Below are positions 11,947 through 30,413 of a stretch of 56,454 nt of DNA, piece by piece (position 1 is the first letter of the stretch; each line of letters opens with the position of its first letter). The position numbers were made by a program, and so were the translations under genes. Location: positions 1 through 56,454 of the IMG/VR virus record IMGVR_UViG_3300020477_000030; one strand, written 5' to 3'. The notes beneath the pieces are model-generated. The model had not been told where the DNA came from and ran no database searches. It saw nothing but the letters and a program-made list of their open reading frames with translations. Source of the stretch: a virus (Duplodnaviria > Caudoviricetes).

Positions 11947-11990
11947 ACAGTAAAAGCCCCTAGCACGCTTTCACATGCTAGGGGCTTTCA
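11945..11990 (-). terminator. rho-independent terminator after the first early gene
   Basis: aaagcccctagca / tgctaggggcttt 13-bp stem, followed on the minus strand by TACTGTTT; lies directly after the stop at 11992. Confidence 0.8.
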
Positions 11991-20809: not shown

Positions 20810-21745
20810 ATGAACGACGATGAAACCTGGGAAGAAGTAGAAGTCCCTGAACAAGAAGTAAATTATGAAATAGAAGAGGAAGAGGCTCCTCAAGAAGCTG
20901 CTCCTCCTCAAGAAGAAGATAAACCTGAAGAACTAGAAGGTATTAAAACTAAAGGAGCAGAGAAAAGAATTAGGCAATTAGTTCGTCAACGTAAAGAACG
21001 TGATGAACAGATTTCTAAATTAATTGCTCAAAATGAATCATTAGTAAATAATTTACAACAGAGAGAAAATTCTTTTAATGAAGTAAGTAAACTAAATCTA
21101 GATGCTTCTGAAAAACAATTAACAGATAAAGTTACACTGGCACGTAATGCCTATATGGAAGCATTTGAAAGTGGTGAAAAAGAAAAGCTTCTGCAAGCAC
21201 AAGAAATGCTTAATGAAGCGCAAGTAGATTTAAAACATTTAAATCTTACAAAAGCACAAATGGAAGAAGTTGCTGAACAACCTGAACCAGTTCATCAGCC
21301 AACACAACAAAAGGCTGTTCAGCCTACACCTGATCCTAGAGCAGAAGAGTGGGCTACACAAAATGAATGGTTTGGTAAAGATAAAATTTTAACTGTTTCA
21401 GCTTTAACAATAGATCAAGAACTTAAATCGGAAGGATATGATCCAGATGATGATGAATTTTATCATGAAGTTGATCGGCGGCTTGCAGAAGCTTTTCCAC
21501 ATAAGTTTAAAGCCAGTGAAGTGGCTGTGGAATCAGATCAAAACCGTATGCAGGAAAATACGTCAACTCCTGCTCAAGTGGTGGGAAGCAGTTCGCGCTC
21601 TGCTCCCAATTCCTCGAAATCCAAAGTAAAGCTAACTCCAGAAGATGTTAGGCTTGCTAATAAATGGAATATACCCCTTGAAACTTATGCTGCTCAGAAA
21701 CTAAAAGTTGCTGAAGCAGACGGCGAATATACGCAAATTACTTAG
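20810..21745 (+). CDS. capsid scaffolding protein
   Basis: Acidic N-terminus, coiled coil, W...NEWFG motif, located upstream of the capsid genes. Confidence 0.75.
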   Translation: MNDDETWEEVEVPEQEVNYEIEEEEAPQEAAPPQEEDKPEELEGIKTKGAEKRIRQLVRQRKERDEQISKLIAQNESLVNNLQQRENSFNEVSKLNLDASEKQLTDKVTLARNAYMEAFESGEKEKLLQAQEMLNEAQVDLKHLNLTKAQMEEVAEQPEPVHQPTQQKAVQPTPDPRAEEWATQNEWFGKDKILTVSALTIDQELKSEGYDPDDDEFYHEVDRRLAEAFPHKFKASEVAVESDQNRMQENTSTPAQVVGSSSRSAPNSSKSKVKLTPEDVRLANKWNIPLETYAAQKLKVAEADGEYTQIT

Positions 21746-22905: not shown

Positions 22906-23826
22906 ATGGCTATAAATCGTTCAAGTATTGCTAAAGAACTCCTTCCTGGCCTTAATGCTGTTTTCGGTCTAGAGTATGGTGATGTTAATAATGAGCATGA
23001 AGCTCTTTATGAAACGGAAAACTCTGATCGGGCATTTGAGGAAGAAGTTCTATTTACAGGTTTTGGTACTGCCCCAACCAAAGGTGAGGGTGCTGCTGTA
23101 ACCTATGATGACGCGCAGGAAAGTTACACTGCACGTTATACGATGGAAACCGTCGCTCTGGCCTTTGCCGTTACGGAAGAGGCTATGGAAGACAATCTGT
23201 ATGACACGTTTGCGAAGCTACGTGCCAAGGGTCTTGCAAGGGCAATGGCAAATACGAAGCAAGTCAAAGCTGCTAATCTATTCAATAATGGTTTCTCTGA
23301 TACCATTGGCGATGGCGTAGCATTCTTTGCTTCGACACACCCAACGATCAGTGCAGGTAATCAGTCTAACTTGATTGCTGCTTCTGATCTTTCAGAGTCT
23401 ACTCTGGAAACTGCTCTAACGAATGTACAAAAAATTGAAGATGATCGTGGTATCTTGATTGGTGCCAGTTCTGTATCTCTTCATATTCCTGTAGATTCAT
23501 GGGCAATTGCGGATCGTGTTCTGAACAGCCCTGGAACTACTCAGGTTAGTGCTGCTCAGAAAGACCCGAATACAAACGCTATCAATGCAACGCGCCATAT
23601 GGGTATGTTGCCTGATGGATTCTATGTCAACCGTCGATTTACCGATACGACTTCTTGGTTCATTAAAACGGATGTTCCGAATGGCACCAAGATGTTTGTT
23701 AGGACTCCTCTTCAAACGAAGATGGAGCCTGATTTCGATACTGGTAATCTTCGTTTCAAGGCGCGTGAGCGTTATGCTTTCGGTGTCTCTGATTGGCGTG
23801 GATGGTTCGGTTCACAAGGATCGTAA
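22906..23826 (+). CDS. major capsid protein
   Basis: MAINRSSIAKELLPGLNAVFGLEY, SDRAFEE, EEAMEDNLY, DFDTGNLRFKARERY; size and position fit. Confidence 0.92.
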   Translation: MAINRSSIAKELLPGLNAVFGLEYGDVNNEHEALYETENSDRAFEEEVLFTGFGTAPTKGEGAAVTYDDAQESYTARYTMETVALAFAVTEEAMEDNLYDTFAKLRAKGLARAMANTKQVKAANLFNNGFSDTIGDGVAFFASTHPTISAGNQSNLIAASDLSESTLETALTNVQKIEDDRGILIGASSVSLHIPVDSWAIADRVLNSPGTTQVSAAQKDPNTNAINATRHMGMLPDGFYVNRRFTDTTSWFIKTDVPNGTKMFVRTPLQTKMEPDFDTGNLRFKARERYAFGVSDWRGWFGSQGS

Positions 23827-23836
23827 TTATAATTGA

Positions 23837-24031
23837 TAAAGTCAGGGAGGATTATGGTATTCGTGTGAAATATCATTATAAACTCCTTTTTAAAATATTG
23901 CTGAGGGAACTGATACCTCGGCTGTTAAGACGGGATGATTTTGCTCCCGACTATGTAAATGCACTTCTTTGTGAGCATCGTTTCCGATGATCATTAGATA
24001 CCGTGGAGAAATACAGTTCTCCCTGACTTTA
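23837..24031 (+). ncRNA. candidate structured RNA/cis-regulatory element
   Basis: 13-bp perfect closing inverted repeat (taaagtcagggag / ctccctgacttta) enclosing at least four local hairpins; no credible ORF. Confidence 0.6.
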
Positions 24032-24046
24032 CTTTAGGAGATAAAT

Positions 24047-24313
24047 ATGGCAAATAATTATAATTCACTTTTTCAGGCAGGTGCAGGAGTTATTTCTACA
24101 GCAGCTAAAACTCGCATTATTGCGGTCCATGCTCATAGTACAGTAGCAGGTTCCTTTGATATCAAGGGAGCAACATCAGGAGTTTTAAAATTCTTTGTAG
24201 CAGCCAATGAAAGTGCAGATATTTATATTGGAGATATGGGAGTTCCAATGGTAGGAAGTGTAAGTGTTTCGGTTCCTGCTGATGGGGCTGCTTTAACATT
24301 GATAGTAGGCTAA
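24047..24313 (+). CDS. small virion structural protein
   Basis: AGGAG RBS; beta-rich, follows the MCP. Confidence 0.65.
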   Translation: MANNYNSLFQAGAGVISTAAKTRIIAVHAHSTVAGSFDIKGATSGVLKFFVAANESADIYIGDMGVPMVGSVSVSVPADGAALTLIVG

Positions 24314-24317
24314 TAAA

Positions 24318-24998
24318 ATGCCTAACTTTTCGTTTTTAAAAAATGATTTGATTAATACAACTGAGAATGACTCAACTGAGTTTTCAGATCAAATACCTTT
24401 TTTTGTAGAAAAAGTAGAGAACAGACTTGCAAATGATCTAGACGATTTTGGTCTAGATTTTTTTGCTACTGTATCTTGTTCAATAGGAAATCCTATTGTA
24501 TCTCTTCCTGTTGATACAAAAATTGTAAGAAATGTAAATGTAATATCAAGTGCATCATCTACAAGAACTAATCTATTACCTAGAACTTATGAGTATGCAA
24601 TAGATTATTGGCCTCATGCAAGCGCATCCGTAGGCGATCCTAGATATTATTCACGTAAAACAAACACAGAGATTTATATTGTACCCACTCCTGCATCAGC
24701 AGTCGATATAGAAGTACAATTTGTTCGTAAACCTTTAGGTTTAGCTTCTGCAACTGGAACCAGTGTAACAACTTCTAATTATTTTAGTGAGTTCTGTTAT
24801 AATGCTTTATTCTATGGTTGTATGATCGAAGCTACCATGTATATGAAAAGTTGGAATGATCTTCAGATATGGGAAGGTCAATACCAAAACGCAATTAATC
24901 AACTTAGAAACCAGGCTCGTCGGACCCGACAAGATGACATGGCACAAGCAGCAAGTCCTGCTGGTGGTCCTGATACTGTTATTATGGGTTCAACTTAA
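24318..24998 (+). CDS. probable head-tail adaptor protein
   Basis: GDPRYY, IYIVPTP, ALFYGCMIEA pattern; position. Confidence 0.65.
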   Translation: MPNFSFLKNDLINTTENDSTEFSDQIPFFVEKVENRLANDLDDFGLDFFATVSCSIGNPIVSLPVDTKIVRNVNVISSASSTRTNLLPRTYEYAIDYWPHASASVGDPRYYSRKTNTEIYIVPTPASAVDIEVQFVRKPLGLASATGTSVTTSNYFSEFCYNALFYGCMIEATMYMKSWNDLQIWEGQYQNAINQLRNQARRTRQDDMAQAASPAGGPDTVIMGST

Positions 24999-25201
24999 TG
25001 GCTATTGGTAGAAGTAAAGTTTCAAAACAAGTATCTAAACCTAAACTAGGTTCAGGTAAAAGATTTAAAAGTTTAACAAAAAAGTTAAAAAAGAAGGGAG
25101 CTAAGAATCCCAAAGCTCTTGCAGCCTATATAGGACGAAAAAAATATGGGAAGAAAAAGTTTCAAAAATTAGCATCTAAAGGAAAAAGGAGAAAGTCATG
25201 A
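24998..25201 (+). CDS. small highly basic protein
   Basis: LGSGKRFKSL...PKALAAYIGRKKYG; TAATG coupling. Confidence 0.7.
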   Translation: MAIGRSKVSKQVSKPKLGSGKRFKSLTKKLKKKGAKNPKALAAYIGRKKYGKKKFQKLASKGKRRKS

Positions 25202-28099: not shown

Positions 28100-28401
28100 T
28101 GGCAACAGATCGTAAAGCTTTAGCAGTATGTGATATTTGTAATTTTAGATATCCACATAGATTAATGAAGCTTAATAGCTTTGGTTTATTAGTTTGTCCA
28201 GAAGATTATGAAGGTTCTTTTGATTTAAAGAATCATCCTCAAAATAAAATTCCTGATGTAAGAGATGATACAAAAATAAATAATCCTAGACCTGATTCAG
28301 GAGGTCGTAACCTAGTGTGGAATACAGCAAACTTACTTTGGGAAGGAACTCCCAATAATATGAGTGATCAAGTAGTTTCACCAGTTTGGAATAGCGCATG
28401 A
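28099..28401 (+). CDS. small tail-module protein with CxxC motif
   Basis: CDIC...VCPED...HPQ...PRPD. Confidence 0.7.
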   Translation: MATDRKALAVCDICNFRYPHRLMKLNSFGLLVCPEDYEGSFDLKNHPQNKIPDVRDDTKINNPRPDSGGRNLVWNTANLLWEGTPNNMSDQVVSPVWNSA

Positions 28402-30413
28402 GTGATTTTGATTTAACAGGTAAAAGAATAGCAGATACTTACAAAGGTTTACTTAAACTAGCTGTAAGTGGTAATGGTGCAGTATCTTCATCTTTAACTC
28501 AAGTTGAAGGAGGAGATGGAACTAATACAGCTTTACTTGTAGCTACTAGTGCTATACGAGTTGGAGGTGCTTTTGCAGTATCTTCTAGCACATCTATAGG
28601 TGGTTCTTTAAAAGTTAATGGAGATGTATGTGCAAGCTCTTACTTTGGCAGTGGGCGTCATCTTACTAGTATTATAGCAAGTGGAGATACATCTGTTAGT
28701 TCTCTTATTGTAGCTAATACTGCTACAATTGGAGGAACTCTTTCGGTAGGTGGAGCAGTTAATTTTTTAAGTACAGCGACTGTATCTGGTAATTCAGGAT
28801 TTCTAGGAACAGTACGTGTAAGCGGAGCTACATCACTTGAAGGTGCTGTTAAGATGAACAGTACAGCTACTGTAAGTGGAGCTACAGGATTTCTTGGAAC
28901 GGTTAGAGTAAGTGGTAATACAACTGTAGGCGGAACTCTGGATGTAGCAGGTAATACGTCAGTAGGAGGAACACTTATTACAACTGGAGCAGCAACATTT
29001 GATGATGATGTTTCAGTTTCAGGTAATGTTAATATAGGCGGTACAGCAACTGTTGCAGGAGCAGCATCTATTGGTGGGGCTGTATCAATTGGAGGAGCCG
29101 TTAATTTATTAAGTACTGCAACAGTATCAGGCGCAGCAGGATTCTTGGGATCTGTTCGAGTTAGTGGAGCTACCTCACTTGAAGGAGCTACAGTACTAGG
29201 ATCAACTGTTACTGTAGCAGGAGCAGGACATTTTAAAGACGATGTTTCTGTAAGTGGTAATCTTAATATTGGAGGTACAGTTACAATAGCAGGAGCAAAT
29301 GTACAAGCAACTAATGCTAAAGTATGTGCCAGTGCTTTCTTTGGTGATGGTTCTAATTTAAGTAATGTCCCTGCTGTTATTACAGGTAATATATCTGTTA
29401 GTAATATATTAGTAGGAGGAACTGCCACAGTATCTGGTGATGCTACATTTAAAACTAATGTATCTGTAAGTGGTAATTTAGTTGTAGGAGGAACTACAAC
29501 AATAGTAGGTGCAGCTTCTATAGGAGGGGCTGTATCAATAGGAGGTGCAGTTAATCTTCTTAGTACAGCCACAGTATCTGGTGCAACAGGTTTCCTTGGA
29601 ACTGTAAGAGTTAGTGGTAATACTACAGTAGGTGGTACATTAGATGTAGCTGGTAATACCTCAGTAGGTGGAACATTTATATCTACTGGTGCAGCCACAT
29701 TCGATGATGATGTATCTGTATCAGGTAATGTTAATATTGGTGGAACAGCTACCGTAGCAGGGGCAGCTTCTATAGGAGGAGCAGTATCTATAGGAGGTGC
29801 TGTAAATCTTTTAAGTACAGCTACTGTTAGCGGTGCTACAGGATTTTTAGGAACAGTACGTGTAAGCGGTAATACAACTATCGGAGGCACGTTAGATGTA
29901 AATGGTAATACTTCTATAGGAGGTACATTCCTAGCTACAGGTGCAGCTACTTTTGACGATGATGCTTCTGTATCAGGAAATTTAAATGTTGGAGGTACAG
30001 CTACTATAGGAGGAGCAGCATTAATTACAGGTAATGTAAGTCTTGGTGGTCAATTCTTTTTAGCTAAGTCAGGAGCAGCAGCTATATCAGCAACAGCTAT
30101 TAATGGTATTACTTCTGTTTCATTAAACTTTTCTAATGCTCAAAATTTTCTTACAACAGTTACAGCCGCACATACATTAGCTAGACCAACAAACGCAACT
30201 AAGGGACAAACAGGAAGTATTTTCTTTGTACAATCAGGAGGTAGTGGAACATTAGCATATAATACTTGTTGGAAATTTATTGGAGCTAGTGTTCCTACTT
30301 TTGCTACAAGTAATGGAGCAGTATCTAGATTAGATTATATTGTTGTATCAATATCTAGTGACAGTACTGGTGAAAATATACATGCAATTTTAACAAATGA
30401 ATATGGACGTTAA
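28398..30413 (+). CDS. tail fibre with hexapeptide beta-helix repeats
   Basis: G/S/T/V/A-rich 6-residue periodicity with an 84-aa super-repeat; C-terminal GQTG...WKF.G..P adaptor-like domain. Confidence 0.8.
   Translation: MSDFDLTGKRIADTYKGLLKLAVSGNGAVSSSLTQVEGGDGTNTALLVATSAIRVGGAFAVSSSTSIGGSLKVNGDVCASSYFGSGRHLTSIIASGDTSVSSLIVANTATIGGTLSVGGAVNFLSTATVSGNSGFLGTVRVSGATSLEGAVKMNSTATVSGATGFLGTVRVSGNTTVGGTLDVAGNTSVGGTLITTGAATFDDDVSVSGNVNIGGTATVAGAASIGGAVSIGGAVNLLSTATVSGAAGFLGSVRVSGATSLEGATVLGSTVTVAGAGHFKDDVSVSGNLNIGGTVTIAGANVQATNAKVCASAFFGDGSNLSNVPAVITGNISVSNILVGGTATVSGDATFKTNVSVSGNLVVGGTTTIVGAASIGGAVSIGGAVNLLSTATVSGATGFLGTVRVSGNTTVGGTLDVAGNTSVGGTFISTGAATFDDDVSVSGNVNIGGTATVAGAASIGGAVSIGGAVNLLSTATVSGATGFLGTVRVSGNTTIGGTLDVNGNTSIGGTFLATGAATFDDDASVSGNLNVGGTATIGGAALITGNVSLGGQFFLAKSGAAAISATAINGITSVSLNFSNAQNFLTTVTAAHTLARPTNATKGQTGSIFFVQSGGSGTLAYNTCWKFIGASVPTFATSNGAVSRLDYIVVSISSDSTGENIHAILTNEYGR

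Follow-up and report, generated by a model that had tools for sequence, protein, structure and literature searches.

The window, i.e. the whole stretch of DNA analysed here, is a virus genome record of 56,454 nt that is rated 97% complete; the capsid gene and the genes and features between it and the adaptor gene, as described below, lie on the + strand. The gene for the major capsid protein (306 amino acids) occupies positions 22906-23826 and was recognised by its matches to phrog_371 (major head protein; E 3.5e-21) and to the Pfam families Phage_capsid_4 (50.7 bits) and Mu-like_gpT, the last of these being a weak match (25.9 bits, with a cut-off of 20.1). The capsid gene is followed by an intergenic region of 220 nt, by an ORF of 88 amino acids and unknown function (24047-24313), and by a gene for a head-tail adaptor of 226 amino acids (24318-24998), which matches Pfam SU10_adaptor with 67.3 bits as well as phrog_2941. 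A Shine-Dalgarno (SD) motif, AGGAG, can be read off the sequence ahead of the 88-amino acid gene at 24036-24040. The 88-amino acid protein matches no PHROG or Pfam family and does not align with Gp60 of Pelagibacter phage HTVC027P; homologues of its gene lie directly 3' of the hairpin described below in related phages. The nearest named phages are HTVC027P and HTVC023P, both infecting Pelagibacter, with about 66-67% nucleotide identity across part of the capsid gene. A search of the window for tRNA and tmRNA genes returned none.

The 220-nt intergenic region contains a long-range inverted repeat, the arms of which (TAAAGTCAGGGAG at 23837-23849 and CTCCCTGACTTTA at 24019-24031) are 13 nt long, 100% complementary and separated by 169 nt. 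Further inward, the helix gains the pairs G.U, A-U, U.G and U-A, giving 17 bp including wobble pairs; the SD motif begins 4 nt beyond the 3' arm. Four smaller hairpins are found between the arms (23854-23876, 23900-23922, 23931-23949, and 23976-23989), and the GGAG of the 5' arm can instead pair with CTCC at 23883-23886, which is followed by TTTTT (23887-23891), to give an alternative hairpin at 23846-23891. An earlier note on this DNA had reported these features and proposed that they form a 195-nt RNA; a check of the sequence confirmed the presence and position of every one of them. When folded as a whole, the intergenic region reached -61.8 kcal/mol (z -3.79; 0 of 200 shuffles were equally stable), with a z of -4.82 for the minus strand. 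The interior by itself (23856-24012) gave a z of -1.34, and 21 of 200 shuffles were equally stable. Because the interior alone is near shuffle level, the fold signal of the region can be attributed to the closing stem. We note that the 56-kb window has three perfect inverted repeats of at least 13 nt with arms at most 400 nt apart, so a 13-bp repeat is not rare per se, and that the 13-nt arm with up to two mismatches occurs 3 times in the window compared with an expectation of 1.69. It is therefore the comparative evidence, and not the statistics of this single sequence, that leads us to accept the closing stem as real.

To obtain that evidence from relatives, IMG/VR was scanned with the capsid protein, which returned more than 600 matching stretches, of which the best 80 (67-97% amino acid identity) were used. 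The intergenic region was defined as the sequence from the capsid stop codon to the next ORF of at least 40 amino acids starting with ATG and could be read in 74 of the 80 loci; the remaining six (L023, L039, L053, L056, L069, and L076) were left out, having no such ORF, or no sequence, past the capsid gene. In most of these loci, the region measures 52-75 nt. Combined with the metagenome contigs described below, they yielded 48 distinct regions of this short class, and a single hairpin dominates the fold of each. Its 5' arm is rich in purines (GGGAGG-like) and its 3' arm in pyrimidines, the loop between them is short, and the SD motif comes next. These regions had a median z of -4.23; none of 100 shuffles was equally stable in 43 of the 48, and at most 3 were in all 48. 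RNAalifold, run on a MAFFT alignment of 47 of the 48 regions, predicted eight pairs, all of which had changed on both sides. In the same 47 regions, 86.9% of the cells were paired (74.6% in shuffles), 73 cells had changed on both sides (26.8 in shuffles), and the covariation score was 0.602 (0.364 in shuffles), none of 500 shuffles reaching the observed value in any of these comparisons. Because the aligned sequences are related, 0 of 500 is not to be read as a probability, but controls with slid partners, which preserve this relatedness, scored clearly lower (0.19-0.34). The + strand was more stable than the - strand in 48 of the 48 regions (median difference -5.65 kcal/mol), and 116 of the 792 predicted pairs were G.U, so the suggestion in the earlier note that the closing helix functions in the + strand RNA is borne out. 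A cultured phage, HTVC027P, also has such an element, with a predicted 12-bp hairpin (z -5.34) within a post-capsid region of 57 nt. We conclude that the hairpin, as predicted from these alignments and folds, is a conserved element of the sense-strand RNA after the capsid gene throughout this phage group.

Several variations on this layout were seen among the relatives. In a distant branch (L033-L038, L042, L044, L046, L048, L052, L054, L057, L058, and L072), the hairpin is followed by six or seven T and then by a GTATAAT box, a layout that reads as a predicted terminator followed by a promoter ahead of the next gene. Further, extra small ORFs are present between the post-capsid hairpin and the adaptor gene in L022, L026, L043, L066-L068, L073, and L078-L080, including a Lys-rich ORF of about 36 amino acids in L043 (1101-1330); the slot between hairpin and adaptor gene is a hot spot of gene gain. 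Finally, L018 (3916-3996) carries a 15-nt mini-hairpin, GGGTGAAAGCCCCCA, which is added in the hairpin loop when compared with L017, L019, and L020, and which, judged by this comparison, is a second and independent case of insertion at the hairpin apex.

The window itself departs from the short hairpin of its relatives, and a scan of metagenomes with a pattern consisting of the 3' arm and the SD motif (CTCCCTGACTTTACTTTAGGAG) indicated how. The scan returned 14 contigs (L085-L098), and in all 14 the window's own arms enclose a short loop of 4-6 nt within an intergenic region of 55 nt (L088 begins inside the hairpin); an example of this allele is AAAGTCAGGGGGGAT-TACG-GTTCTCCCTGACTTT. In the window, the 5' arm of this ancestral hairpin, AAAGTCAGGGAGGAT, lies at 23838-23852 and corresponds to a matching 15-nt arm in L085-L098, in which A/G variants give G.U pairs. 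It is followed by TATG (23853-23856), a remnant of the tetraloop that reads TACG or TAAG in most of these contigs. The 3' arm, GTTCTCCCTGACTTT, lies at 24016-24030 and is identical in the 14 contigs and in all contigs with a long interior. By comparison of the two forms, the short-loop form in the 14 contigs is the empty site of an insertion, and we refer to the two forms as empty and filled alleles.

The empty form resembles an intrinsic terminator. Behind the G+C-rich part of the stem runs a T-rich tail, TTTACTTT (24028-24035; 6 T in 8), so that the U-rich tract expected directly past the stem of such a terminator is present in the window too. The expected short loop of 3-8 nt is seen in the empty alleles (stem of 13-15 bp, loop of 4-6 nt); in the window, the arms enclose 163-169 nt. 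When a rule combining stem and T-run, a script version of the rule of the terminator scan tool, was applied, 5 of 5 distinct empty alleles passed (contiguous stem of 12-13 bp, loop of 4-6 nt, tail TTACTTTAGG), and 0 of 4 filled alleles did. Across all distinct regions, 42 of 77 passed (26 of the 49 short regions and 16 of the 28 long ones) and 35 failed, and the scan tool itself flagged the empty L096 but not the empty L085. The ancestral form, with its predicted 15-bp stem, tetraloop and TTTACTTT tail, looks like an intrinsic terminator in the clade of the window, for which the predicted position of the 3' end in the empty alleles would be directly beyond GACTTTACTTT, at about 24031-24035.

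The insertion in the window, which we term type A, is 159 nt long, is lineage-specific and occupies 23857-24015 (with limits accurate to 1-2 nt). Each pattern scan of IMG/VR, with the right end of the insert or with its flanks, retrieved the same three further contigs with a filled site, namely L082, L083, and L001 (which is also L081), so that among the contigs found in this clade, including the window, 4 of 18 are filled and 14 of 18 are empty, although records almost identical to the window may have been missing from the scanned set. L082 and L083 carry type A and are 97.0% and 97.6% identical to the window, respectively, over the 169 nt between the arms. L001 carries a different insertion of about 134 nt, type B, in the same place. 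The two types resemble each other at their ends only, over 9 nt on the left and about 26 nt on the right (about 36 nt by alignment with one indel), and their middle parts of about 110 nt are unrelated. The common left end, TATTCGTGT (23858-23866), forms nine consecutive identical columns in the alignment of the window with L001, and the common right end, ATTAGATACCGTGGAGAAATACA (23993-24015), was retrieved by blastn-short as a match between A144-169 and B119-144 (92.3% over 26 nt; E 0.001), the sole similarity of the two types in that search. We note that the GGAGAA of the right end is able to pair locally with TTCTCC of the 3' arm. In addition, the filled alleles share the flank TA(A/G)TTATAATTGATAAAGTCAGGGAG, with six extra nucleotides (TTGATA) just upstream of the 5' arm, and this flank is absent from all empty alleles. 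Type A is widespread: 18 sequencing runs from 10 listed studies contain at least half of the sampled words of a 1.2-kb stretch around it. Of two DNA runs that were aligned, one gave a single contig across the whole stretch with 3 differences and the other covers the insert in pieces. Because of this spread, we consider the insert to be at least tolerated, and it may be of some benefit.

The existence of empty alleles bears directly on the proposal, made in the earlier note, of a functional 195-nt multi-hairpin RNA, acting either as a processed or decoy RNA or as a termination switch that engages the 5' arm now in the long helix, now in the CTCC hairpin with its five U. Some observations agree with it: the alternative pairings do exist and exclude each other, type A persists over many runs and studies, none of the four filled contigs has lost the closing helix, and types A and B have kept a similar right end. 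The remaining evidence makes it very unlikely. First, all four inner hairpins sit in the insertion, which is missing from the 14 contigs of the same clade, as the structure is from 74 more distant relatives, and L001 holds unrelated sequence at the same place. Second, the stability of the interior is at the level of chance, as is apparent from the z of -1.34 given above. Third, the alternative terminator-like fold (23834-23895) is weak (-11.7 kcal/mol; z -1.71; 14 of 200 shuffles equally stable) and does not exist in the type B sequence, which has no U-run there. Fourth, the interior changes as if its pairs did not matter. Among ten variable sites in the interior, collected from L082, L083, and the two DNA runs, six are paired in the minimum-energy fold of the window; five of these changes break the pair, one turns G.U into A-U and none is compensated, and no covariation was found. 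Further, a contig of 83 nt from DNA run X6 skips 23971-24002, i.e. 32 nt including the fourth hairpin, which is weak evidence given its depth of 2.5. Mismatches to the window are also concentrated here: 5 of the 17 mismatches of L082 (in 4,568 aligned nt) and 4 of the 19 of L083 (in 2,605) fall within the 169 nt between the arms. By these counts, the insert is evolving faster than its flanks, and we conclude from the comparison of alleles that it is not a conserved RNA and that its predicted hairpins are at chance level.

Two further points of the earlier note were examined. It had assigned the structure to no known RNA family, and a permissive Rfam search of 23000-25000 and of five relatives indeed gave no match close to a gathering score, which also counts against a functional 195-nt RNA. 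It had also allowed for translation of an ORF at 23793-23990 across the structure; tblastn matched this ORF in 1 of 80 loci, with residues 1-26 only, which overlap the end of the capsid gene. Types A and B do not have the same mini-ORFs either, and we rejected the ORF as coding. The suggestion of a switch that sets the capsid:tail expression ratio survives in part: a role in expression is plausible, but it would belong to the ancestral terminator-like hairpin and not to the 195-nt RNA.

The genetic backgrounds of the alleles suggest how the filled site has spread. Between the filled L001 and the empty L086 and L092, the difference amounts to 0.6-0.7%, whether the 900 nt upstream or the downstream genes are compared. 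In the 88-amino acid gene, the window and the empty L096 are 0.7% apart, but over the final 290 nt of the capsid gene they diverge by 13% (23500-24320 compared). The backgrounds of the window and L001 differ by about 9%. On the strength of these differences, the intergenic region is a joint of recombination. The 6-nt flank marker, which is present in both filled types and in no empty allele, together with these background distances, implies that homologous recombination moved the filled region between backgrounds. Overall, we conclude that the hairpin apex and the slot behind it are hot spots of insertions and recombination joints.

As to the origin of the insert, our best guess is an event of illegitimate recombination or filler-DNA insertion at the hairpin apex, which would have separated the loop from the 3' arm by about 159 nt of foreign DNA, so that the old arms now close a 195-nt structure, and which would have been followed by internal replacement. 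Simple decay does not account for conserved ends on either side of a middle part that is unrelated. We considered two other origins. The insert might be a small non-autonomous mobile element (MITE-like, or in the style of IS200/IS605 or IS110) that homes to the loop of the terminator hairpin, with its ends as recognition sites and its interior as free cargo. This would account for the conserved ends with their unrelated interior, and for the occurrence of filled and empty alleles 0.6-0.7% apart in background, in two different backgrounds; the second, independent loop insertion of 15 nt in L018 is in keeping with it. An imperfect duplication of 5-6 nt is possible at the junction (TATGG on the left and TACAG on the right, with TACGG at the empty site). 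Further, when the 19 nt ahead of the 3' arm are compared with the ancestral 5' arm and loop, type A agrees in 9-11 of 19 positions (empirical p 0.0025-0.036), a weak signal from a post-hoc comparison in fixed register; for type B, with 7-9 of 19 (p 0.03-0.2), the duplication signal is weak.

Other findings argue against a mobile element and make it, in our estimate, unlikely. Inspection of the alignments showed no terminal inverted repeat that belongs to the insert itself. The insert was seen at this locus only: searches of the window genome, of 98 loci (blastn-short) and of IMG/VR by pattern scans (with the right end and both flanks) returned none, 185,579 species genomes gave 0 matches, a phage collection searched in distant mode gave matches of at most 35 nt with E values of at least 0.03, and the complete relative G001 gave only chance matches of 14 nt. 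The 56-kb genome had 0 matches to Y1 transposase (PF01797) and TnpB (PF07282), the controls for which matched, and likewise 0 to reverse transcriptase (PF00078) and HNH. Moreover, the 6-nt flank marker lies outside the hairpin and points to transfer by homologous recombination and not to fresh insertion. If the insert were nevertheless an element that targets loops, it would represent a new kind of mobile DNA in phages. A more specific form of this idea, which we regard as distinctly improbable, is that both inserts belong to a so far undescribed kind of tiny cassette residing in the loop of a phage terminator hairpin. The ends of such a cassette would be fixed (9 nt on the left; about 30 nt on the right, where half of the target hairpin would be present as a degenerate copy) and its interior exchangeable, and it would spread among co-infecting marine phages via flanking homology and retune how far transcription of the capsid gene reads through into the genes for head completion.

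The other origin that we weighed, and for which we see hardly any likelihood, is decay: what is now the insert would once have been a small gene or a sequence duplicated locally, such as the start of the 88-amino acid gene. Extra small ORFs between capsid and adaptor genes in relatives make such a source conceivable, and, besides a likeness seen by eye, two short direct similarities connect the flank or insert with the start of the 88-amino acid gene (D1, 74% over 27 nt; D2, 75% over 20 nt). Against this, local alignment to the downstream 389 nt gave type A a score of 35, compared with a mean of 32.4 for shuffles, 147 of 500 of which scored as high; for type B, 264 of 500 did. On these shuffle-level alignments we rejected the insert as a decayed duplicate of the start of that gene. 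Nor is there any ORF common to types A and B, and the ORF at 23793-23990 is not conserved, as noted above. Two other candidates were rejected as well. A retron ncRNA would require (as judged here) an adjacent reverse transcriptase, and the genes downstream encode the 88-amino acid protein and the adaptor; the right end is not a repeated phage promoter, since GTGGAGAAATACAG with up to three mismatches occurs 4 times, with 5.65 expected, and no sigma-70-like boxes were seen by eye.

With regard to function, the most likely role of the hairpin on the sense transcript would be that of a leaky terminator and/or of a hairpin that protects the 3' end. There would then be more mRNA for the capsid protein than for the 88-amino acid protein and the adaptor, the genes of which start 16 nt later. 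Because 35 of the 77 regions fail the terminator rule and L085 was not flagged, the hairpin could also be mainly a stabiliser or a processing site. In the filled allele, the helix can still close thermodynamically, and the centroid fold retains the pairing of the arms in both the window and L001, so we assume that the old function is probably kept, perhaps weakened; with a structured loop of about 165 nt, however, an intrinsic terminator may not work at all. Type A offers a weak substitute hairpin with five U, and type B has none. As for transcripts, RNA run X19 gave one contig of 152 nt (23702-23850), the end of which coincides with the branch point of the alleles at 23850, and RNA run X20 gave one contig within the capsid gene with less than 90% identity; such contigs show neither transcript ends nor transcript levels. 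Taking structure and role together in one judgement, we think it probable that the window carries an apparently unconstrained, lineage-specific loop insertion inside a conserved post-capsid hairpin, and that a leaky terminator or 3'-end hairpin is the best explanation of the latter.

Hairpins in this position have precedents. The T-phi terminator of phage T7 is a hairpin just downstream of the major capsid gene. Similarly, in phage LUZ100, passages of the published account describe a terminator after the capsid gene and a higher level of capsid transcript than of transcripts from downstream genes (PMC10134795). The hairpin described here is like both in being a strong hairpin after the gene that is expected to be the most highly expressed structural gene, on the same strand, with downstream genes reached via read-through; it is unlike them in that its sequence is unrelated to theirs, that a T7-type design seems to be lacking in the phages here, and that termination is predicted only. 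The 159-nt loop insertion of the window had no counterpart among the descriptions of post-capsid terminators that literature searches brought up. Within Rfam, the closest likeness is to Mu-gpT-DE (RF03012), which is likewise conserved at the RNA level and likewise lies immediately 3' of a capsid gene of the gpT type. The two differ in that the covariance model scored 16.7 bits (E 1.3), with a gathering score of 49, and matched 24021-24049 only, and in that it matched none of five relatives, including empty alleles; with a score below the gathering score, membership of RF03012 was rejected.

The insertion has its own partial parallels. Correia and ERIC elements are bacterial MITEs that fold as long RNA hairpins. 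These elements and the MPME elements of mycobacteriophages are, like the insert, small, non-coding, intergenic and co-transcribed, with filled and empty sites in close relatives. They differ from it in having terminal inverted repeats of their own and many copies; here, the inverted repeat is that of the target hairpin, and one site is known. At this locus, then, an element of a known kind, the terminator-like hairpin after a capsid gene, occurs in an unusual form: its loop holds a large, polymorphic insertion of which there are two unrelated versions. What newness remains lies in the origin of the insert.

This result has consequences beyond the locus. A long-range helix with inner hairpins can mimic a new ncRNA when it is really an ordinary post-capsid hairpin split by an insertion, and the false lead is hereby removed; for scans of this kind, the lesson is to seek the allele with the empty site before calling a long-range helix an RNA. 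Further, a covarying hairpin on the sense strand in an abundant group of marine phages (relatives of HTVC023P and HTVC027P) is usable as a marker of transcript architecture in uncultured phages.

Three other features of the window were noted in passing. Among the perfect inverted repeats with arms at most 400 nt apart, the longest has arms of 17 nt (GAAAAGCTTCTGCAAGC at 21182-21198 and GCTTGCAGAAGCTTTTC at 21481-21497), which are separated by 282 nt and lie inside the ORF at 20810-21745 (phrog_28737, unknown function). The hairpin at 11953-11988 (AAAGCCCCTAGCA and TGCTAGGGGCTTT), with 13 bp free of mismatches and a loop of 10 nt, resembles another terminator. Finally, the ORF at 28398-30413 (671 amino acids) contains at 29487-30019 a tandem repeat with a unit of 252 nt (84 amino acids), present in 2.1 copies with a 77% match, which shows up as offset BLAST matches to relatives.
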